64,000 bases of DNA. Origin: Enterobacteria phage vB_EcoM_IME540. Location of the stretch: the sequence record MT150133.1. The stretch is one strand, 5' to 3'. This document shows positions 6,598 through 26,468 of the stretch, in pieces. The notes beneath the pieces are model-generated. The model ran no database searches and was not told the DNA's origin. It saw only the letters and a list, made by a program, of their open reading frames with translations. The translations under genes and the position numbers were made by a program. Numbering within the stretch: position 1 is the first letter of the stretch; each line of letters opens with the position of its first letter.

Positions 6598-7056
6598 TCA
6601 CAAGTAAATTACTTTCGTGCTGGTTTTACCTTCTAAACGTTTAGAGTTAACAAATGCCATACGACATTTAAGGGAATATCCTTTATCAGGATGTTTACGG
6701 TCTACTGTCATACCTAGCCATAAGGTTTTATCGGTAATTTCGAGACGCAATGGCCGATACACTTTACCAGGGACAATTTCGGATTCTACATCAGGCAGAG
6801 GTTCCTGGATTAAGAATTCATGGATTTCTTTAACATGGTTATGGAGTTGCTTGAATAAAGCAAAAACGTATTTTTCGTCGATTTCACGTTGGATAGCACG
6901 GTCCAACAAGTGGTTAGAGTACTTAATAAAGAAGGCTGGGACTCCGCTCTTAATGGCGGCTTTTTTGATGGACGTATTCAGTTCACGGAATTCGGTTTCG
7001 AACTGACGACGTAATTTATTGCGGCGGATGAATACTTCTGAATTAATTTCTGACAT
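6598..7056 (-). CDS. regB: RegB-like endoribonuclease
   Basis: 152 aa; EVFIRRNKLRR...HLLDRAIQREIDE...LEITD..LWLG resemble T4 RegB as recalled; position between tk and denV as in T4. Confidence 0.6.
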   Translation of the reverse strand: MSEINSEVFIRRNKLRRQFETEFRELNTSIKKAAIKSGVPAFFIKYSNHLLDRAIQREIDEKYVFALFKQLHNHVKEIHEFLIQEPLPDVESEIVPGKVYRPLRLEITDKTLWLGMTVDRKHPDKGYSLKCRMAFVNSKRLEGKTSTKVIYL

Positions 7057-7073
7057 TTTGTAATCTCCTGTAG

Positions 7074-7113
7074 TTGATAGGTCTATAGTACCACGTCTAC
7101 AGGAGATGTAAAC
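7074..7113 (-). promoter_or_regulatory. early promoter cassette (PeSL-like) copy 2, upstream of regB
   Basis: Same core; flanked by inverted repeat CTCCTGTAG / CTACAGGAG. Confidence 0.6.
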
Positions 7114-7117
7114 TGCT

Positions 7118-7327
7118 TTATTCTTGGAATGGGGTAAGTTTTCCAGCAGCTGAACAAATTTCTACCAGTACAGGGTAAAACTCTTTCACTTGTTCAAGGC
7201 GTTGGGCTGCATACTGTACTTCACCTTCTTCGAGACAAGCCATTTGGTCGTCAAGCAAGTATTTGTGGTAGCCAGTACAGGCTTCACCGATGATACGCTG
7301 GAAATCTTGTAAACTTTCAATTTTCAT
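7118..7327 (-). CDS. hypothetical small protein (start taken at ATG overlapping upstream stop, ATGA)
   Basis: ORF track 7118-7369; internal ATG at 7327 gives translational coupling with upstream ORF. Confidence 0.4.
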   Translation of the reverse strand: MKIESLQDFQRIIGEACTGYHKYLLDDQMACLEEGEVQYAAQRLEQVKEFYPVLVEICSAAGKLTPFQE

Positions 7328-8793: not shown

Positions 8794-9093
8794 TTAGAAA
8801 GAACCAGAACCTCTAATTGTGTTCTGGCGACCTTTATTTTCTAATTCGGAGTGGTCGATTTCATATGCTTGTGCTACGCCAAAGGCCTTTTTAACTTTAG
8901 CTAAAGAACCTTTAGATGTAACAATATTAAAAGTATTACCTTTGGTAAAATCAACAAAATCGACTTGTACGCCCTGTTTACCGAGGCTTGCTACAATAGC
9001 ATCAACATATTCTTGGTCTAAATTGCCTTGAACTCCAATTTGAAATGCTTTAGGAGCTTTGGCTTCTGTGATAAATTCTTGATAAGTTTTCAT
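8794..9093 (-). CDS. internal-protein-like (capsid-targeted) protein, ipII position
   Basis: N-terminus MKTYQEFITEAK matches the T4 IP capsid-targeting sequence MKTYQEFIAE; adjacent to denV as ipII is in T4. Confidence 0.6.
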   Translation of the reverse strand: MKTYQEFITEAKAPKAFQIGVQGNLDQEYVDAIVASLGKQGVQVDFVDFTKGNTFNIVTSKGSLAKVKKAFGVAQAYEIDHSELENKGRQNTIRGSGSF

Positions 9094-9136
9094 TGTTATT
9101 CCTTAAGTTGATAGAAGTATTCTATCACGGATTTAA

Positions 9137-9553
9137 TTAAGCGTAAATAGCCTTGCCATAATGTTTGTACCAGGTAGGACGCTGTGCAATTTTTTCATCC
9201 AAACGGGTCTGAGATATAGCAATAGAAGCTTCGTGTGGAGTATAGTCACCACGGAATTCCTGAGGAATGCCACTAATGTCCTGGACAGTAGTATCCTTGA
9301 TATTAAAACCACGTTTTAAACATTCGGCTATAAGCTCAATTTGTCGCTTACGTAAAAATTCAAGCTTATCGTAAAAGAATGTAACATGGCCTGTGCCAAG
9401 GATAAAAGTAGGACTGATTTTGAAATCACGGACACGTTTACCATTAGCAACATGCTTACGAACTGCACCGAAAACACGTGGTAATTCACGATATTCAGCC
9501 ATTAAGTGTTGGTCGGCCAATTCAGATACTAAGGTAAGGTTGATACGAGTCAT
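9137..9553 (-). CDS. denV: endonuclease V (pyrimidine dimer DNA glycosylase)
   Basis: 138 aa, near-identical to T4 DenV as recalled ([34 protein letters not shown]...). Confidence 0.93.
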
Positions 9554-9570
9554 TTTTTAATCTCCTGTAG

Positions 9571-9610
9571 TTGATAGGTCTATAGTATCATGCCTACAGG
9601 AGATGTAAAC
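9571..9610 (-). promoter_or_regulatory. early promoter cassette (PeSL-like) copy 3, upstream of denV
   Basis: Same core; flanked by inverted repeat CTCCTGTAG / CTACAGGAG. Confidence 0.6.
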
Positions 9611-10009
9611 TTATTTATAGGTTTTCATCCAATTCTTGAACAAAGCTGCGACGTCTTTCTCTTTAACGTTCAGTTTAACGTCCAACATTTTACCACCGGC
9701 AGCACGTGTCTGACGAATCTTAGCAGTACCGGTTTCGCCATTCCACTCAACATAATACTGTCCGGTGTTCATTGCAATACCGTCGCCGTAGTCTTCATTT
9801 TTAGAAGTGGTGAATGCCAGCTTCATAGTCTTAGATACACGAGCCTGCATGCCTGTCTGAAGGGCATTACGAACGCGAATAACCTGAGGAGTGGCCTGGG
9901 TCAGGTTTTCATTCAGTTCTTCAGTGAACTCTTCAGATTCAAACATCGCCAAAAGTTCTTTAGATGCAGGAATTACATTCTCTGCGATAAATTCATTATA
10001 AGTTTTCAT
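9611..10009 (-). CDS. internal-protein-like (capsid-targeted) protein, ipIII position
   Basis: N-terminus [11 protein letters not shown] (capsid-targeting-like); between denV and e. Confidence 0.6.
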
Positions 10010-10490
10010 ATGCTTTCCAAGTACCTGTTTTAAATGTGGAAATCACGCGCTTAGCACGATTAGGAGTTTGTTTATACCAACGGGATTGAGCCAGGTTAAC
10101 TGCTGCATCATCCCAACGTTTTTGCTGAAGCATACGCAGAGAGTTAGTGAACCCTGCTACGCCTGCTTCACCCATTTGGAAGACCATGTTAATTAAAGCA
10201 CAACGACGAACTTCGTCCAGTACATCATAAACAGGTTTCAATTTAGGATTACGCAGAATAGCTCTACGAGCATTTTCAACCGACCGGTTAAAGAGTTGTT
10301 CGGCTTCAGCCATAGTAATACGACCATTGCAAACTCGACCCATAAGCTTATCAAGTTCAGCCCGAGCAACATCTTTAGAAGGATTCTTAGTAATCAATTG
10401 GCCAATACCAATAGTATAGTATCCCTCAGTATCCTTATATAAGTCTAATTTACAGCCTTCATCAAGGCGTAACATATCAAAAATATCCAT
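9996..10490 (-). CDS. e: lysozyme (endolysin, T4 e)
   Basis: 164 aa; [12 protein letters not shown]...[15 protein letters not shown]... closely matches T4 lysozyme incl. catalytic Glu/Asp/Thr context. Confidence 0.95.
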
Positions 10491-10494
10491 AATA

Positions 10495-10520
10495 CCTCCT
10501 GAGTATAGGAGGTATTTATA
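10495..10520 (-). promoter_or_regulatory. lysozyme e late promoter plus SD-sequestering hairpin
   Basis: Minus strand TATAAATA (10513-10520) followed by CCTCC-TATACTC-AGGAGG hairpin (10495-10512) that pairs the e SD. Confidence 0.6.
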
Positions 10521-10970
10521 TCAAAAGAGCGAGTCTAAAACCTTAAACATCGACGGGCCCATGACATATTCCCATTGAGGTCGTTTAATCAAGGCGAACG
10601 CATCGAATTCAGGAATAGTACGACCCTCAGGGAATGTATGGTAAGCCGTACATTTGCAATCCTTGAACTGCTCGTGTTCCACAGGCACCGTATATAAGAA
10701 CAGATGTAGATTCTTATTGCTTGAATATTTGAACTCACCTAGGTCTTTCAGGAATGCAGGATCGTATGCTGTGAATCCAATCTCTTCTTCGGTTTCGCGC
10801 ATTGCCGCTTGAATAGGCTCTTCGCCTGGTTCGACATGACCTTTAGGAATGTCCCATTTATGACGCATATTCTCTGGATTACGAGAGCCTGTTACACGAC
10901 CCATGACCAGTTCTTTATCAACGGTCATGAATAAAATACCTGCCGATAATTCCTTAGCTTTCTTACTCAT
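10521..10970 (-). CDS. nudE: Nudix hydrolase (NudE / e.1)
   Basis: Nudix box GHVEPGEEPIQAAMRETEEEIG; start placed at ATG 10968-10970 (MSKKAKEL...) rather than track start 11075. Confidence 0.8.
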   Translation of the reverse strand: MSKKAKELSAGILFMTVDKELVMGRVTGSRNPENMRHKWDIPKGHVEPGEEPIQAAMRETEEEIGFTAYDPAFLKDLGEFKYSSNKNLHLFLYTVPVEHEQFKDCKCTAYHTFPEGRTIPEFDAFALIKRPQWEYVMGPSMFKVLDSLF

Positions 10971-11199
10971 CGTCTCGTTCCCATGATTGTTTAAAAATAT
11001 CTTGCATAATAATTTGAAGTCTATTTTCTGTTGATGGACTTTCACTATCAGACACTTGAAGCATATAGTCACCAATAGGACAGAACATATCCAAGTCGCT
11101 TTCTAAATCTTCTTTGATTTTCTCTTCTGACGTTCCGGTATCATAGGAATACAGATAAGAATCACATGACTCGGATTTAATATAAATCGCAATACTCAT
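10963..11199 (-). CDS. hypothetical small acidic protein
   Basis: ORF track. Confidence 0.35.
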   Translation of the reverse strand: MSIAIYIKSESCDSYLYSYDTGTSEEKIKEDLESDLDMFCPIGDYMLQVSDSESPSTENRLQIIMQDIFKQSWERDDE

Positions 11200-11789
11200 T
11201 TACGGCATTCCTCAATAAACTCATTTAAATTCCGTTTGATTTTACCTTCGTCGTAAAGACGTTGTTGACGACGTAAACGCCATGGCATTTCAATAGCCAA
11301 GCACCAAATACTTAAAGCAGCGCCAGCTGTGAAAAGGTTCATTAATCCAGCACCAATAATAGTTCGTTCTAGCGCATCATTCCAGTTAGCATCGATTAAA
11401 AATGAACTCAACACTAACATTGGAAGTAAAGTAATAAAATATGCTACAACATATCGTCTGAACGTAAGCCATTCAGTATCGATGAGCTTAGCCTTTCCAT
11501 CTTGGAGACAAATATACTTATCGTCAGTGCGGGTGATTTTCTTTACTGGTTGCCAGCCGTTTACGATATAGCCCATTTTATATTCCTCAATTAAAAGCTG
11601 TTTCATTTCGGCAGTACAACCTGACCAATCTATTGTACTGGCTGAAATTCCTTCATCACCGTCATCGATATTTCGCCAGGACTTTTTAATAATCATATGT
11701 TCACCACTTGGGATAATAATTCCAGCATTTTCCGACCGACGGATGAAGTTTGTATCAATACCCATACAACCGGGTTCATAAAGGGCCAT
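11196..11789 (-). CDS. hypothetical membrane protein with C-terminal NEFIEECRK motif
   Basis: 197 aa; two hydrophobic segments near C-terminus, then basic tail. Confidence 0.5.
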   Translation of the reverse strand: MALYEPGCMGIDTNFIRRSENAGIIIPSGEHMIIKKSWRNIDDGDEGISASTIDWSGCTAEMKQLLIEEYKMGYIVNGWQPVKKITRTDDKYICLQDGKAKLIDTEWLTFRRYVVAYFITLLPMLVLSSFLIDANWNDALERTIIGAGLMNLFTAGAALSIWCLAIEMPWRLRRQQRLYDEGKIKRNLNEFIEECRK

Positions 11790-12478
11790 TACCAGCCCTC
11801 CATAGGGAATTCCAGATATACTTGAGCATTAACGCGGATTTCATTAGTAATCTTTTTAACTCGGTCGGTATTACGAGACACACGACCAAACCAGCGCCAA
11901 CCGTTACTTACTGCACGAGAACCTGTATGCCATGTCTGCCAATCAAACTGGAGCAACGTGCGGTCGGGGGCATCCCACTTGGTTAATTCATTAGACTCAA
12001 TTTTTTCCAGAACTTCTTTATGCCACTGGCGATAGATAAGTTCGCCTTCAGGAATCTGACTGAATTGTGCAGTTCCGGTTGCAAAATGAGTAGGACACAC
12101 ATCAGCGTTAACAAGACCAAGAATATGTTCAGAATGGTATCGAGGATTATCATAATCAGGTTGCCCTGCGGTAATAAAGTGTTGACCCACCGGAATATCC
12201 GGGCGTGGTACATCATCATGGTGGAAGCCTGGAATTGCAGGGTACCAGCCAGGCATTAACATGTGTACACGGGAATCAAATACAATATCAGGGCCACATT
12301 GCCAATCTTCAGGCAGGTTTTCAATAAAGCTACGAGTAATAGGACCGCCATGTTTATGAGCAAAATAAGCATCGCAATTAAAGAACATAGGCTCATTTTT
12401 AATCATATCATTACTGATATCTTGAGCAAAACCACCTACTGCACGAGCTTTAGAATTAAAAATTTTTGGACCGTTCAT
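11789..12478 (-). CDS. hypothetical protein (229 aa)
   Basis: ORF track; long ORF on gene strand. Confidence 0.5.
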   Translation of the reverse strand: MNGPKIFNSKARAVGGFAQDISNDMIKNEPMFFNCDAYFAHKHGGPITRSFIENLPEDWQCGPDIVFDSRVHMLMPGWYPAIPGFHHDDVPRPDIPVGQHFITAGQPDYDNPRYHSEHILGLVNADVCPTHFATGTAQFSQIPEGELIYRQWHKEVLEKIESNELTKWDAPDRTLLQFDWQTWHTGSRAVSNGWRWFGRVSRNTDRVKKITNEIRVNAQVYLEFPMEGW

Positions 12479-12492
12479 AATATTTTCCTCAC

Positions 12493-12705
12493 TTACTTTT
12501 TGTTGAAAAAGTACATTTTACCTTTAGGGGATAAGGATACACGAAGTGCGTTACCAATACCAACTGAACATTTAACCAGGTCAGCAGATTTCAATTCACC
12601 AAATGCTTGACGAAGGTCACCGTCACGAGTGTTAACCATCAGGCATTTAGCACCAGCTGCACGAACTTCGTTTAACATGTTGATTGCTTGGTTAGAAAGT
12701 TTCAT
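12493..12705 (-). CDS. hypothetical small protein (start at ATG 12705)
   Basis: Track ORF begins with TTG at 12783 inside the promoter cassette; ATG at 12703-12705 is preceded by GGAG and the leader AGTGAAATGGAGAATAAAATG. Confidence 0.45.
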   Translation of the reverse strand: MKLSNQAINMLNEVRAAGAKCLMVNTRDGDLRQAFGELKSADLVKCSVGIGNALRVSLSPKGKMYFFNKK

Positions 12706-12731
12706 TTTATTCTCCATTTCACTCTGTTGTT

Positions 12732-12771
12732 TTGATAGGTCTATAGTATCACACCTATAGACCTTGTACAC
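12732..12771 (-). promoter_or_regulatory. early promoter cassette (PeSL-like) copy 4
   Basis: Same core with GTGTACA -35 variant; inverted repeat AGGTCTATAG / CTATAGACCT. Confidence 0.55.
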
Positions 12772-12783
12772 TGTTTTGTGCAA

Positions 12784-13743
12784 TTATTTTTCGAAAGGAC
12801 GAATTAAATGTTGGTTACGCTTAAACCGTTCAATGTAGTCGTTTTCACCTAAAGTCTTGTACATATTAACCACAGCTTGGTAGTTTTCCCATGCATAAGT
12901 GCGGAACCAACCTGAAGTGATTGAGGTGCACACTTTCTCAAGGGCCATATAGAAACTTAATGATGGTGAAATATTGAAGTCATTAGGAACCTGTGAACGT
13001 TCTAGTGCCAGGACACAAGTTTCTTCATACACACCAGCCAGTTTAATAGCTTCAGGCAAAGCCTCGAACTTCTCACGAGAGGTCATGACTTCAGAACCTT
13101 CCTTCATATAAAAGGTATATGCAGGGCGCCCTGCCAATGCCACTGCTTCATGGATAGAGTCGTGGTCCAGAGTATAAATGGGATCATTAAAGAACGATGA
13201 TTTGTTTACATCCAATTTAGGGTGGGAATAGCTCAACGTTTCTTTTTGACGTTGCAACATAATTTCCTGGAGTTCTTCGTTAAGGGTGATACCTTTATTA
13301 CGAAGGTATTTGATGTGGGACATGGTTTTCAAGAAGAACGGATTATTCTTCAAGAAACGATGGGAGGTTTTGATAGCCAGACAGATATCAGGGGTTGCCC
13401 AATAGAAACCTGTAAGACGGTCCTTTTTAATATGATTTTCGGCATATTTCAGGAGACGATAACTTGAGGTGAAATCTTCGTCTTGAAGCTCACCGGTAAT
13501 TTCTCGTACGTTAGTCAGGGCACGAACGATATAAGCTTCAAAATAGGTTTCTTTACCATTGTACATGCATTTAAAAGCCTGGACATCAGGGTTATCCACA
13601 GGAACATGGGCACCAAACATCCGAGCTTTAAAGTGATTCCATGAGCCTTGGTCGGCAATGAAATCCCAATCAGAATTTTCGATATGCTTACTTTCAATCA
13701 GACCAGCGTGGTGCAGTGCACGAGAACCAATAACTAACATCAT
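12784..13743 (-). CDS. hypothetical protein (319 aa) with nucleotidyltransferase-like GS...DxD signature
   Basis: Start set at MM (13743/13740) with GAGGA SD; N-terminal LVIGSRALHHAG...SDWDF resembles pol-beta-type NTase motif; weak. Confidence 0.45.
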   Translation of the reverse strand: MMLVIGSRALHHAGLIESKHIENSDWDFIADQGSWNHFKARMFGAHVPVDNPDVQAFKCMYNGKETYFEAYIVRALTNVREITGELQDEDFTSSYRLLKYAENHIKKDRLTGFYWATPDICLAIKTSHRFLKNNPFFLKTMSHIKYLRNKGITLNEELQEIMLQRQKETLSYSHPKLDVNKSSFFNDPIYTLDHDSIHEAVALAGRPAYTFYMKEGSEVMTSREKFEALPEAIKLAGVYEETCVLALERSQVPNDFNISPSLSFYMALEKVCTSITSGWFRTYAWENYQAVVNMYKTLGENDYIERFKRNQHLIRPFEK

Positions 13744-18952: not shown

Positions 18953-19027
18953 TGGTATCCCGCCCTGGGATCGAACCAGGACCGCAAACTTAGAAGGATC
19001 GTATGCTATCCATTACACCAGCGGGAC
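18953..19027 (-). tRNA. tRNA-Arg (anticodon UCU), CCA encoded
   Basis: Reverse complement GTCCCGC...GATCCTTCTAAGTTTG...CCTGGTTCGATCCCAGG GCGGGAT ACCA folds as cloverleaf: 7-bp acceptor, T-arm with TTCGATC loop, anticodon loop CTTCTAA; one T-T mismatch in anticodon stem. Confidence 0.7.
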
Positions 19028-19032
19028 GTAAT

Positions 19033-19698
19033 TCAAAATTTTATTTTACGGCCTTTATTCCAACCTTCAGGAATAATATCCGTTTTGTTAATACGTTTAG
19101 AAACTTTTTCTTCTAAAGAATGAATCCACATTTTTCCATATCCGGAATTATTTTCACCTTGTTGGTGTTTATTTCTGGCGTGAGATTCTTTCATTTTATT
19201 TTTGGTTTCATCTGAATGGGTCTTACCCAAGAAAGATTTAGTATTTGAAAATTTCTCTCTATACTTAGGATTATCCCAAAGTTGTTTAAACCTTTCCGAA
19301 CCCATTTTACGATATTTTTCTTTAAGGTCTGGGTCGTTCTCAAATCTGGTTTTAAAAGCGGCAACTCCTTTTAAGGAAGCTTCTTTCTTTTTATCTAAAT
19401 ATTCTTCAGTGTTTAAATGGTCCCAACCACCTTCACCACCTAATTTCAAATTATAAACATCAGGGCGCTTTAAAAACTCTTCAGTCACAATATTCTTTTC
19501 TGACTCAAACATAGAGGTTTTATCGTCAAAGAACTCTAATATTTCTTTAGAGAAATTTTCTATACCGTATTTGACCTGGGCCCTTTTTAAGAGTTTACCA
19601 GAACCAAAATATGCATCATTCAAATTTTCGGTTGAATGGGCGCCTATATAGATTTTATTATTAATTTTGTTTGTTATTTTATAAGTGTAATGGAACAT
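19033..19698 (-). CDS. GIY-YIG homing endonuclease-like protein (segB-like, within tRNA cluster)
   Basis: N-terminus YTYKITNKINNKIYIGAHST...YFGSG; sits between two tRNA genes as segB does in T4. Confidence 0.7.
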   Translation of the reverse strand: MFHYTYKITNKINNKIYIGAHSTENLNDAYFGSGKLLKRAQVKYGIENFSKEILEFFDDKTSMFESEKNIVTEEFLKRPDVYNLKLGGEGGWDHLNTEEYLDKKKEASLKGVAAFKTRFENDPDLKEKYRKMGSERFKQLWDNPKYREKFSNTKSFLGKTHSDETKNKMKESHARNKHQQGENNSGYGKMWIHSLEEKVSKRINKTDIIPEGWNKGRKIKF

Positions 19699-19739
19699 AA
19701 ATATCTCCTATTTCTAAGAGTATTTATGTTCTCAAAATA

Positions 19740-19810
19740 TGGCCCTGGGTGGAATCGAACCACCATCCAGCGATTATGAGTCGCTCGCTTGACCGTCCAG
19801 CTACAGGGCC
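19740..19810 (-). tRNA. tRNA with anticodon CAU (Ile2-type or Met); CCA not encoded
   Basis: Reverse complement GGCCCTG TA GCTGGACGGTCAAGC G AGCGA CTCATAA TCGCT GGATG GGTGG TTCGATT CCACC CAGGGCC A; perfect anticodon and T stems. Confidence 0.75.
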
Positions 19811-23911: not shown

Positions 23912-24748
23912 TTAAGAATTCTTCCATACTTTCTGAGCTGAGTAACGCTTACCTTTCGATACAAATTGCTGAAGCGGTAATCCTATTACATTAGCCCAAT
24001 CAGACGGTTTTATCTCTACTAAAGGTCCCTTGATATTTCCAGGGATATAAGCTTTAATCATCACGTCGGCGCCAGCGAATCCTTTTACCTTACTCCAATC
24101 GATTTTTAATTTAGTCGAGTTCGTAATGGTAGGCGTACTCGCGTATTGCTTCAGCAATTCTTCCAGAAATTGTTGACGTGCTTTAGGTGGAATATAGTGT
24201 AAGTTCAGTCCGTACATTAAATTATGCTTACCTAACCCAAGATAAATTATTAAAGGATATTTGTCCCAGTATGGTAGGGTATCCTTATGTTTGGCATCAT
24301 AGATATAAGCATAAAGCTTACCAGGAGACGGTTTAGATACCTGGTGTCCACGAATTCCTTTCTTTAATGTTTCTGTAAACCATTTAGCTGATTTATTGTT
24401 TATGGCAGCGCCTTCGTTAGCAATCTTATCGCGAATACTCTTTCTAAAACTATTCACCAAAATTAATTGACGTTCTGCTTTGGTTAATTTATTGCCAGGT
24501 TTCTTCTGAAGTTTTTCAACCTGTACAGCAGTTTTAATTCGACTCGAGTATCGAGACATCGCAGATGTAAAGCTAGAATACTTGATGCCTTTATCTTCAG
24601 CGAATTTCTTAGCCGAAACACCTTTAGCCTTAGCGTTGGCATATTCAACGCCTAAAGTTATCCATTGTTGTTCTGAACGAGTAGGCTTGGAACCTTTTGT
24701 AGTTTCAGTAGCCTCGTTGATGTAAGAAAATATACTCATCCTTTCCAT
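23912..24748 (-). CDS. 2: gp2 DNA end-protector protein
   Basis: 278 aa; synteny between 3 and 4; size matches T4 gp2. Confidence 0.75.
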
Positions 24749-25185
24749 CCTAATTTTTTCAGTGAGTTTTCGGTAATCAATCTGAAATTAATTCCCATTT
24801 TATCTGCTGTAGCTTTAGCAGCTTTCCATTTATCTTTATTTACACTCCATGTATAATGTTCGTTGATATATCTCTTTTTAGCAGCTGTAGTCATTTTAGC
24901 AGGCGCCGCTGGAGGATGGGTCTCTTTAAAAGGTTTGACTTCGAAAAAGAATTGTTGACCATTGTCGAACTTCACCCAGAAGTCCATAAAATACCGACGT
25001 TTCTTTCCATCAGCGTTACTAAAATATGGAATCACAACCTCTTCCGAGTTCCACTGGACGACATTAGGATGGTTATCAAGCCAACGCATAAGCCATGCTT
25101 CCCAAGAGGAACGATATTGGATTTTCTTCCAATCACCTTTATATTTTTGTAAGTTTGTAGGTTTAAATTTCCCTGAGTAGGCCAT
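24736..25185 (-). CDS. 4: gp4 head completion protein
   Basis: 149 aa; size/synteny; divergent from gene 53 across palindromic late promoter region. Confidence 0.85.
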
Positions 25186-25195
25186 AGTGCCTCCT

Positions 25196-25203
25196 TATAA
25201 ATA
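25196..25203 (+). promoter_or_regulatory. late promoter (TATAAATA) for gene 53
   Basis: Exact TATAAATA 28 nt upstream of ATG. Confidence 0.6.
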
Positions 25204-25210
25204 TTAATAT

Positions 25211-25218
25211 TATTTATA
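25211..25218 (-). promoter_or_regulatory. late promoter (TATAAATA) for gene 4
   Basis: Exact TATAAATA on minus strand 26 nt upstream of gene 4 ATG. Confidence 0.6.
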
Positions 25219-25230
25219 CTCGGAGGCACT

Positions 25231-25833
25231 ATGCTCTTCTCATTTTTCGATCCCATCGATTACGAATCAAAAACAGTCAAGCCAGATTCCGGCTCATTAA
25301 CTGATGCCGATGTACTGAGCGTACCGATGACTGATATATTTAGAAACTATAAAGAATATTTTGATAAAGTGGCTAAAAATTATACACTTAAAACATATTA
25401 TATCAGTGGGGCCCCTCGTCCAGAAGAATTAGCCCATCAACTTTATGGTAACGTGCAATTATATTGGGTCCTTTTAATGTGTAACAATATCTATGACCCT
25501 TATTACGGCTGGATTACAGGCCAAGAATCTGCGTATCAAGCAGCTATTCAACGTTATGCTACTGCAGGCGGAAACCAAGTCCTTTATCATGTCAATGAAA
25601 AGGGTGAGAAATTCTGGAATCTAGTAAATACTCCGGAAAATCCTTATACTTGGTACGATAAAGGTGATACAGAAAAACGTTATCCTCAATATGAAGGTCC
25701 TTTGGCTGCAGTAGATATTTACGAGGACGCCATTCGTAAAAATGAATATAAGCGCGAAATAAAGATTATAGACCCTAATGACATCGAGTCCTTTGTTTCC
25801 GCTTTAATTAGAGAAATGGAGAAGTCACTCTAA
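25231..25833 (+). CDS. 53: gp53 baseplate wedge protein
   Basis: 200 aa; MLFSFFDPIDYESKTV...PMTDIFRNYKEYF...YYISGAPRPEELA... close to T4 gp53. Confidence 0.9.
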   Translation: MLFSFFDPIDYESKTVKPDSGSLTDADVLSVPMTDIFRNYKEYFDKVAKNYTLKTYYISGAPRPEELAHQLYGNVQLYWVLLMCNNIYDPYYGWITGQESAYQAAIQRYATAGGNQVLYHVNEKGEKFWNLVNTPENPYTWYDKGDTEKRYPQYEGPLAAVDIYEDAIRKNEYKREIKIIDPNDIESFVSALIREMEKSL

Positions 25834-26468
25834 TGTTTTATTACGTCTATAAAATAACCAATATAATTAATGGTAAATTTTATATCGGTGCTCATAGTAC
25901 ATCAAATATGGATGACGGTTATATGGGCTCAGGTAAATTAATTAAACGCGCTATACTAAAATATGGCATTGAAAATTTCAAAAAAGAAATATTAAAATTT
26001 GTTGATTCTAAAAAAGAAATGTATGAACTCGAAAAAGAACTTGTTGTCCTTACTGAAAATTCATACAATTTAAAACCGGGCGGTTCCGGTGGGTTTTTAA
26101 AACATGATAACTTTAAAGGCAGGTCCCATAGTCAGAAAACCAAAGATATTATGAGCGCTAATAACTCAGGCAAAAACAATCCTATGTATGGTAGAAAACG
26201 AGACCAACACGGAGAAAAAGCACCTAATTATGGTAAAAAGTGCTCTGAGGCTAAAAGAAAATTACTTTCTGAAAAATCTAAATCCTATTTTGAAAACCTT
26301 CAAACCATAACTAAAAATCTCGGCTTTGGTCCTACATCGGTTGAAACTAGATATGTATCAAGACATATTAAAAAGCTAGGATTAGATTTTTATAAATTTA
26401 ATCGTGATATAACAGAAACTAATGTTTCCATAGTTAGAAATATTTTAGAACAAAGGAAAGCGCTATGA
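25833..26468 (+). CDS. GIY-YIG homing endonuclease-like protein inserted between genes 53 and 5
   Basis: N-terminus YVYKITNIINGKFYIGAHST...YMGSG, paralogous to 19033-19698; NPMYG motif. Confidence 0.7.
   Translation: MFYYVYKITNIINGKFYIGAHSTSNMDDGYMGSGKLIKRAILKYGIENFKKEILKFVDSKKEMYELEKELVVLTENSYNLKPGGSGGFLKHDNFKGRSHSQKTKDIMSANNSGKNNPMYGRKRDQHGEKAPNYGKKCSEAKRKLLSEKSKSYFENLQTITKNLGFGPTSVETRYVSRHIKKLGLDFYKFNRDITETNVSIVRNILEQRKAL

Follow-up and report, generated by a model that had tools for sequence, protein, structure and literature searches.

The hairpin that sequesters the Shine-Dalgarno (SD) sequence of the lysozyme gene e in bacteriophage T4 was reportedly the subject of experiments by McPheeters et al. 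in 1986 (NAR 14:5813). Long early transcripts of T4 reach into e and form an inhibitory structure there, and lysozyme synthesis is about 100-fold lower (Uzan and Miller 2010, PMC3014915). Comparable predicted leaders of T4-type phages closely related to T4 are described in the same review, each with its 5' strand encoded by a late promoter. The same logic operates in the promoter-in-hairpin blocks of T4 soc, gene 49, I-TevI and segB and of Aeh1 mobE, in which the SD and/or AUG lies in a helix of the read-through RNA and a proximal late promoter starts transcription within or after the 5' arm (PMC3014915); these elements belong to other genes, have other sequences and are not homologous to the e leader. 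In T4 late promoters an 8-bp TATA box precedes the start by about one helical turn, its first base carrying the number -13 ("A(-13) in place of T at nine sites"; Geiduschek and Kassavetis, PMC2988020), and the positions from -5 to -1 are usually A+T-rich (PMC2988020).

We analysed a stretch of 64,000 nucleotides from Enterobacteria phage vB_EcoM_IME540 (MT150133.1), hereafter the window. The leader of its e orthologue is very probably a T4-type translational timing switch for lysozyme in a form with a single late promoter. The use of the box, the late start site, the read-through RNA and the translational effect are inferred from the T4 experiments summarised in PMC3014915. The two loci share an orthologous gene, the synteny of nudE and e, an identical SD plus spacer AGGAGGTATTATG and an upstream TATAAATA box that adjoins the anti-SD, and the predicted energy difference between early and late RNA is comparable. 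They differ in that T4 (leader TTTTATAAATACCTTCTATAAATACTTAGGAGGTATTATG) has two late boxes and the window one, TATACTCA standing in place of the proximal T4 box TATAAATACCTTCTATAAATACTTAGGAGG in the loop; in the size of the loop, 8-12 nt in T4 and 6 nt in the window; and in the anti-SD, CCUUC with a G-U pair in T4 and a perfect CCUCC in the window. The stem in the window is at least as stable as that of T4 (-14.1 vs -13.3 kcal/mol).

The lysozyme gene and its leader

The gene e orthologue encodes a protein of 164 amino acids that matches Pfam Phage_lysozyme (PF00959, 9.4e-12) and shows 97% identity to Dhakavirus lysozymes (tblastn) and about 75-77% amino acid identity to e of T4 and the T4 group (75% in the alignment against T4, ~77% by tblastn). 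In the alignment, the residues that are catalytic in T4 (E11, D20 and T26) do not vary. Directly upstream on the same strand lies nudE, a gene order that is also annotated in T4 and JS98. Over 1.2 kb spanning the site, Escherichia phage vB_EcoM-E33 and its relatives give the best match, at 95.7% identity, and JS98 reaches 88.6%; these identities together with the lysozyme matches indicate that the window belongs to a JS98-like Dhakavirus (Tevenvirinae).

When the minus-strand letters were re-read, positions 10520-10488 gave TATAAATA-CCTCC-TATACTC-AGGAGG-TATT-ATG ahead of the T4 e-type lysozyme, so both the string and the coordinates of the original prediction are correct. The sequence runs ...CTC TTT TGA into the box and, after the spacer, continues ATG GAT ATT.... 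The TGA that ends nudE adjoins the late box with no gap, the stem begins 5 nt past this stop codon, and the final four bases of the box, AATA, double as the outer portion of the 5' arm of the hairpin. The features of the locus are as follows.

10521..10970, minus strand: nudE, Nudix hydrolase, 149 amino acids, the upstream gene (PF00293 NUDIX, 7e-15)
10523-10521, minus strand: nudE stop codon TGA (sequence)
10513..10520, minus strand: putative late promoter box TATAAATA, -13 to -6 (sequence, motif enrichment, box numbering from PMC2988020)
10508..10512, minus strand: anti-SD CCTCC, late promoter -5 to -1 (sequence)
10507..10516, minus strand: predicted 5' arm of the hairpin, AAUACCUCCU (minimum free energy and centroid structures)
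10507-10501, minus strand: TATACTC between anti-SD and SD (sequence)
10501..10506, minus strand: loop AUACUC (predicted structure)
10491..10500, minus strand: 3' arm of the hairpin, AGGAGGUAUU, comprising the SD and the SD-AUG spacer (sequence, folding)
10500-10495, minus strand: Shine-Dalgarno AGGAGG (sequence)
10494-10491, minus strand: spacer TATT (sequence)
10490-10488, minus strand: ATG of the gene e orthologue (open reading frame)
9996..10490, minus strand: gene e orthologue, T4-type lysozyme (endolysin), 164 amino acids (open reading frame, Pfam, tblastn)

The box TATAAATA occurs at 20 sites in the window against 7.6 expected, a number reached by none of 100 shuffles. Because the first base of the 8-bp box is -13, the box spans -13 to -6; with the box at 10520-10513, CCTCC therefore occupies -5 to -1 and would not be transcribed from this promoter. 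The predicted late +1 is 10507 (U) or, should the polymerase favour a purine, 10506 (A). The late RNA would thus lack nine of the ten bases of the 5' arm with a start at 10507 and all ten with a start at 10506, no more than the innermost being retained. A search of the minus strand over the 8 kb upstream of e found no other ATAAATA, so that late e mRNA would have no other nearby origin than this box; no usable genome-wide data set of T4 transcription start sites emerged from a literature search. Among the 20 TATAAATA sites in the window, this one has the most G+C-rich segment from -5 to -1. The anti-SD requirement evidently overrides the A+T preference at these positions, and the G+C-rich segment might weaken the late promoter of e.

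Predicted folding in read-through and late RNAs

In ViennaRNA predictions AAUACCUCCU and AGGAGGUAUU form a perfect 10-bp helix closed by the 6-nt loop AUACUC. The stem of CCTCC with GGAGG that had been proposed for this site is present, but the predicted helix is longer, its 10 bp taking in the last four bases of the promoter box. For the 36-nt segment the folding energy is -14.1 kcal/mol, against a mean of -5.6 +/- 2.0 for dinucleotide shuffles (z = -4.26), and none of 200 shuffles folds equally well. In a sliding fold of 30 nt over both strands, 132 of 127,942 segments, representing 23 distinct loci, were at least as stable. Opening the SD of e costs 11.7 kcal/mol, the fifth-highest value among the 54 open reading frame starts with an SD-like tetramer (median 3.0), and the 5' arm has a pairing probability of about 1 in every read-through context. 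The e hairpin is not a matter of chance complementarity. The Rfam covariance models gave no match with an E-value up to 1 in the region 9000-13000, and there is no Rfam family for the e-leader element. As an intrinsic (rho-independent) terminator the hairpin was rejected, having no U-run after its stem (the tail is AUGGAUAUUUUUG) and no call at this site in the terminator scan.

The original prediction held that early transcripts fold the SD into the stem and that late RNA, lacking the 5' arm, is translatable, and it called for a comparison of RNAs with early and late 5' ends. In that comparison, read-through RNAs starting 60, 100 or 150 nt upstream had probabilities of being unpaired of 0.08, 0.00, 0.00, 0.00, 0.00 and 0.00 at the six SD bases, the AUG itself being mostly unpaired in the prediction, and opening the SD required 10.9-13.5 kcal/mol; burial of the SD in early RNA is thus borne out in silico (at most 0.08 unpaired, 11-13.5 kcal/mol to open). 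In RNAs starting at 10508-10505 the SD bases were unpaired with probabilities of 0.1-0.9, varying with the amount of coding sequence included, and the opening energy fell to 2.4-7.2 kcal/mol. The second half of the claim holds with a refinement: the SD is predicted to be far cheaper to open in late RNA, but not to be completely free. In the predicted late RNA the SD can still pair weakly elsewhere, through G-U-rich and context-dependent contacts such as those with the U-rich codons 3-5, and the opening energy reaches ~7 kcal/mol in one context. An identical calculation for T4 gave 12.4-14.6 kcal/mol for read-through RNA and 0.2-3.8 kcal/mol for late RNA, so that the modelled behaviour of the site is similar to that of the experimentally validated T4 site, its late RNA being somewhat less open than that of T4 in some contexts.

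The helicase of the ribosome usually reaches to about +11. Unmasking of the SD by ribosomes that terminate at the nudE stop was considered and rejected, since with a stem beginning 5 nt after the stop and this reach only 1-2 outer A-U pairs would open.

The motif TGATACTATAGACCTA has 11 matches at no more than 3 mismatches on the two strands of the window, against 0.75 expected, and 10 of the 11 are on the minus strand, the strand of e.

1708, 2811, 7078, 9575, 12736, 18012, 21170, 21738, 41724 and 56925, minus strand: matches to TGATACTATAGACCTA (motif scan)
35005, plus strand: weak match to TGATACTATAGACCTA (motif scan)
12736..12771, minus strand: nearest early-promoter candidate upstream of e, with GTGTAC, a 17-nt spacer, (TG)ATACTAT and AGACCTA (motif match)

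Most of these sites have GTTTACA upstream at the distance of a -35 element, which fits a T4-type early promoter, and TCAA usually follows; TGATACTATAGACCTA thus probably marks the -10 and start region of early promoters in this phage. The candidate at 12771-12736 is a likely origin of early read-through transcripts into e. It lies 2.2 kb upstream of the hairpin on the same strand, the intervening five same-strand open reading frames are packed or overlapping, and along the minus strand from 12736..12771 to 10520 the terminator scan called no terminator-like site. T4 early and middle transcripts are all of one polarity (PMC2988020). With the upstream motif, the packed genes, the lack of a terminator-like site and the shared polarity, early read-through into e is plausible.

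We propose that early in infection host RNA polymerase would transcribe nudE into e from upstream early promoters, the nearest at ~12.75 kb; AAUACCUCCU in this RNA would pair with AGGAGGUAUU, the SD would be buried and 30S subunits excluded, and no lysozyme would be made. Late in infection, gp55-programmed polymerase would recognise TATAAATA (10520-10513) and start ~6 nt downstream at 10507 or 10506, giving an RNA that has lost the 5' arm but for one base at most; its SD would be largely free and lysozyme could be translated.

The leader across Tevenvirinae and competing explanations

The e loci of phages from IMG/VR and GenBank yielded 25 distinct leaders, taken from the box to the ATG, from Tequatro-, Mosig-, Dhaka-, Karam-, Moon-, Winkler- and Jiaodavirus and related genera. 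In each of the 25, a [T/A/G]ATAAATA box is followed at 0-1 nt by the anti-SD, and the leader folds into a hairpin (-7.5 to -16.6 kcal/mol) whose 3' arm contains the SD and in which the four core SD pairs are formed. The box, the anti-SD spacing and the position of the SD are thus shared by Mosigvirus and RB69-like phages, Karamvirus CC31, Moonvirus, PEi20, PM2, Winklervirus X20 and Jiaodavirus. What differs is the rest of the stem: in T4, Dhakavirus and RB69-like phages the helix is extended into the promoter box (AAUA/UAUU), whereas in other Tevenvirinae (CUCCUAUC/GAUAGGAG) it is extended on the loop side, as UAUC/GAUA, UAUA/UAUA or UGA/UCA in CC31, Moon, PEi20, X20 and Klebsiella phages. The single compensatory change, U-A to C-G, sets apart the RB69-like group with its CCCC/GGGG pairing, and there are a few G-U wobbles.

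A second late box in the loop was found only in the T4-group leader, 1 of the 25. Judged from these leaders, the single-promoter form, and not the two-promoter form of T4, is the common state across Tevenvirinae; TATACTCA in the window, TATAATCA in JS98 and TATAAACA in PM2 look like decayed copies of the second box. At the e-like genes of Aeh1-like phages and Stephanstirmvirinae neither the box nor the hairpin was found, in agreement with the list of phages without an apparent e-leader structure in PMC3014915. Our literature search found no statements on the e device that are specific to JS98.

Because a plain MAFFT alignment of the leaders did not bring 5' arms of the CC type and the C type into register, pairs were counted on a covariance-model alignment, in which 83-84% of cells are paired, compared with 34-54% in slid registers. 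They were counted twice, on the orthologous rows only and then with a standard tool on all rows, including about ten reverse-strand or non-orthologous ones, where the tool gave 84% paired and 38-54% for the shifted-register control. Covariation is weak: the observed covariation score or percentage paired is reached by 5 of 500 shuffles, a level that relatedness alone can give. Little covariation is to be expected of a helix with the SD as one arm and a promoter adjoining the other. The comparative support is, on our reading of the alignment, the kept architecture and not statistical covariation.

A related arrangement was seen in the e leaders of Cronobacter phage S13 (L084, 632-694) and of L124, where an 11-14-bp hairpin CCUCUUCUAAA/UUUAGAGGAGG covers the SD and there is no ATAAATA box. 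Inside the 5' arm of the S13-type leader, TCTAAATA is similar to the late consensus of the Aeh1 type ([A/G]C at -13/-12, PMC2988020), and these leaders may be a variant of the promoter-in-hairpin device.

The hairpin could be thought to act mainly at the 3' end of the nudE transcript, as a weak terminator or as protection against 3' exonucleases, with burial of the e SD being incidental. Its position 5 nt after the nudE stop and its place among the more stable local hairpins in the window suit such a role, but the terminator scan made no call and the stem is not followed by a U-run. The 3' arm, moreover, coincides exactly with the SD and spacer of e in every one of the 25 leaders, and the late box holds the 5' arm at a distance of 0-1 nt, neither of which an element of nudE needs, and Jiaodavirus UTI-K1 keeps the device though the gene before e differs from nudE; we regard this explanation as very improbable. 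The inverted repeat might instead work as DNA, by binding a protein as a palindrome or by forming a cruciform so as to modulate the late promoter, but this deserves hardly any credence. The repeat does overlap the promoter box and the downstream melting region, and its reverse strand, the site being palindromic, also matches the covariance model; against this, G-U pairs in T4 (CCUUC/GGAGG) and in two further leaders (L097 and L099, CUUCUAUC/GAUAGGAG) keep the RNA pairing and break the DNA symmetry, the 3' arm is invariably the SD, and the T4 experiments favour an RNA mechanism (PMC3014915).

In T4, lysozyme requires the holin to reach the cell wall and is otherwise harmless in the cytoplasm, so the selective need for early silencing is less obvious than often stated. 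The hairpin might then form as an inherited remnant without regulatory consequence, lysis being timed by holin/antiholin and late transcription alone. The weak covariation would be compatible with this, as would the e-like lysozymes of Aeh1-like phages and Stephanstirmvirinae, which cope without such a hairpin (also PMC3014915). We nevertheless consider it unlikely, given a perfect stem no less stable than that of T4, where the structure cuts lysozyme synthesis ~100-fold (PMC3014915), and given that the stem has been rebuilt in different registers across genera with the SD paired in every leader, which argues for selection. A translational timing switch of the T4 type remains our preferred reading of the leader. 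The proposal that the classical temporal control of T4 e is conserved here finds support both in silico and by homology, with all of its sequence-level elements present. The device in the window is an already known T4 mechanism, whose conservation in relatives was noted in the 2010 review (PMC3014915).

Other promoter-in-hairpin arrangements in the window

Several further sites in the window combine promoters or gene starts with SD-covering hairpins. Those with a named element are listed here.

19696-19737, minus strand: segB-like promoter-in-hairpin element (folding, covariance model)
9545-9619, minus strand: candidate denV early-promoter cassette, denV being 9137-9553 (sequence, folding)
7056-7125, minus strand: candidate regB early-promoter cassette, regB being 6598-7056 (Pfam REGB_T4 6e-69, sequence)

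The segB-like open reading frame (19033-19698, minus strand) encodes a protein of 221 amino acids that resembles GIY-YIG/NUMOD3 homing endonucleases, and it lies between tRNA-Met (19740-19810) and tRNA-Arg (18953-19027), a segB-like position. A variant late box, cATAAATA (19728-19721), falls within the 5' arm of a ~17-bp hairpin over the SD and AUG, and the covariance model built from the e leaders also matches this site, at 20.9 bits. The same promoter-in-hairpin logic has been implicated for T4 segB (PMC3014915).

The denV cassette reads TATAAATA-aGTTTACA-TCTCCTGTAG-gcaTGATACTAT-AGACCTATCAA-CTACAGGAGA-ttaaaaaATG. An 11-bp inverted repeat buries the SD at -19 kcal/mol and a sigma-70-type early promoter lies inside the repeat, with the anti-SD TCTCCTGTAG in the spacer between -35 and -10 and the SD arm CTACAGGAGA past the start. 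RNA from the early promoter is predicted to lack the 5' arm, and read-through RNA to keep the SD closed; the late box at 9619 would start RNA at ~9606 with the SD still closed. T4 denV has the same cassette (T4 L170, 1556-1625, minus strand). The regB cassette is nearly identical to that of denV, with the anti-SD TCTCCTGTAG and the SD arm CTACAGGAGA. T4 regB (L172, 1741-1800, minus strand) has another sequence in the same arrangement, GTTTAC-ttttCCTCTTGACtgtgGTATAAT...GTTAAGAGGagaataacATG, with 9 bp formed by CCUCUUGAC/GUUAAGAGG; the comparison suggests that the design rather than the sequence of the regB cassette is conserved. At the putative early-promoter sites 12765 and 21767 the spacer pairs instead with the -10 region itself (AAGGTCTATAGG/ACTATAGACCT). 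The 2010 review gives no hairpin for regB and nowhere names denV (PMC3014915); the late-promoter cases are known, and the early-promoter cases of regB and denV were not found there. These two cassettes could merit a separate look.

At 25186-25232 two divergent TATAAATA boxes (plus strand at 25196, minus strand at 25218) lie within a perfect inverted repeat GTGCCTCC...GGAGGCAC, flanked by a TnsA-like open reading frame (24736-25185) in the position of gp4 and by gp53 (25231-25833). The SDs of the two genes are complementary, so that read-through on either strand buries an SD, with an opening energy of 14-16 kcal/mol that is the maximum in the window, and RNA from the box between the arms is predicted not to bury it. 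This arrangement may be the simple result of two divergent genes sharing one SD sequence. Directly after gp53, an open reading frame of 211 amino acids (25833-26468, plus strand) starts MFYYVYKITNIINGKFYIGAHS...; on visual inspection it resembles a GIY-YIG (seg-type) homing endonuclease, placed as an insertion between genes 53 and 5. On the minus strand at 11776-11805, a hairpin of -14.7 kcal/mol spans the stop/start junction ATGGAGGGCTGGTAATGGCCC of the open reading frames 11789-12478 and 11196-11789 (e.2-like) and covers the SD of the downstream gene (opening energy 12.6 kcal/mol), which makes it a candidate for translational coupling.

What the e locus shows is a classic T4 regulatory device preserved intact in the genome of a Dhakavirus, and this adds little beyond what is known. 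For annotation the result fixes the start codon of e, its late promoter and the expected late 5' end, and the leader may serve as a positive control for pipelines that seek promoter-embedded hairpins sequestering an SD. In the window, an anti-SD in untranscribed promoter sequence is seen at late promoters (e and the segB-like gene) and appears at sigma-70-type early promoters (regB and denV) as well. It is conceivable, though doubtful, that the e hairpin is one case of a genome-wide rule in T-even-type phages under which genes are translated only from RNA of their own promoter, a rule that may operate through an anti-SD located where the proximal promoter is not transcribed. If this were true, the anti-SD would be what forces on e the only G+C-rich segment from -5 to -1 among the 20 late boxes, a feature that might adjust how strong this promoter is or when it is active.
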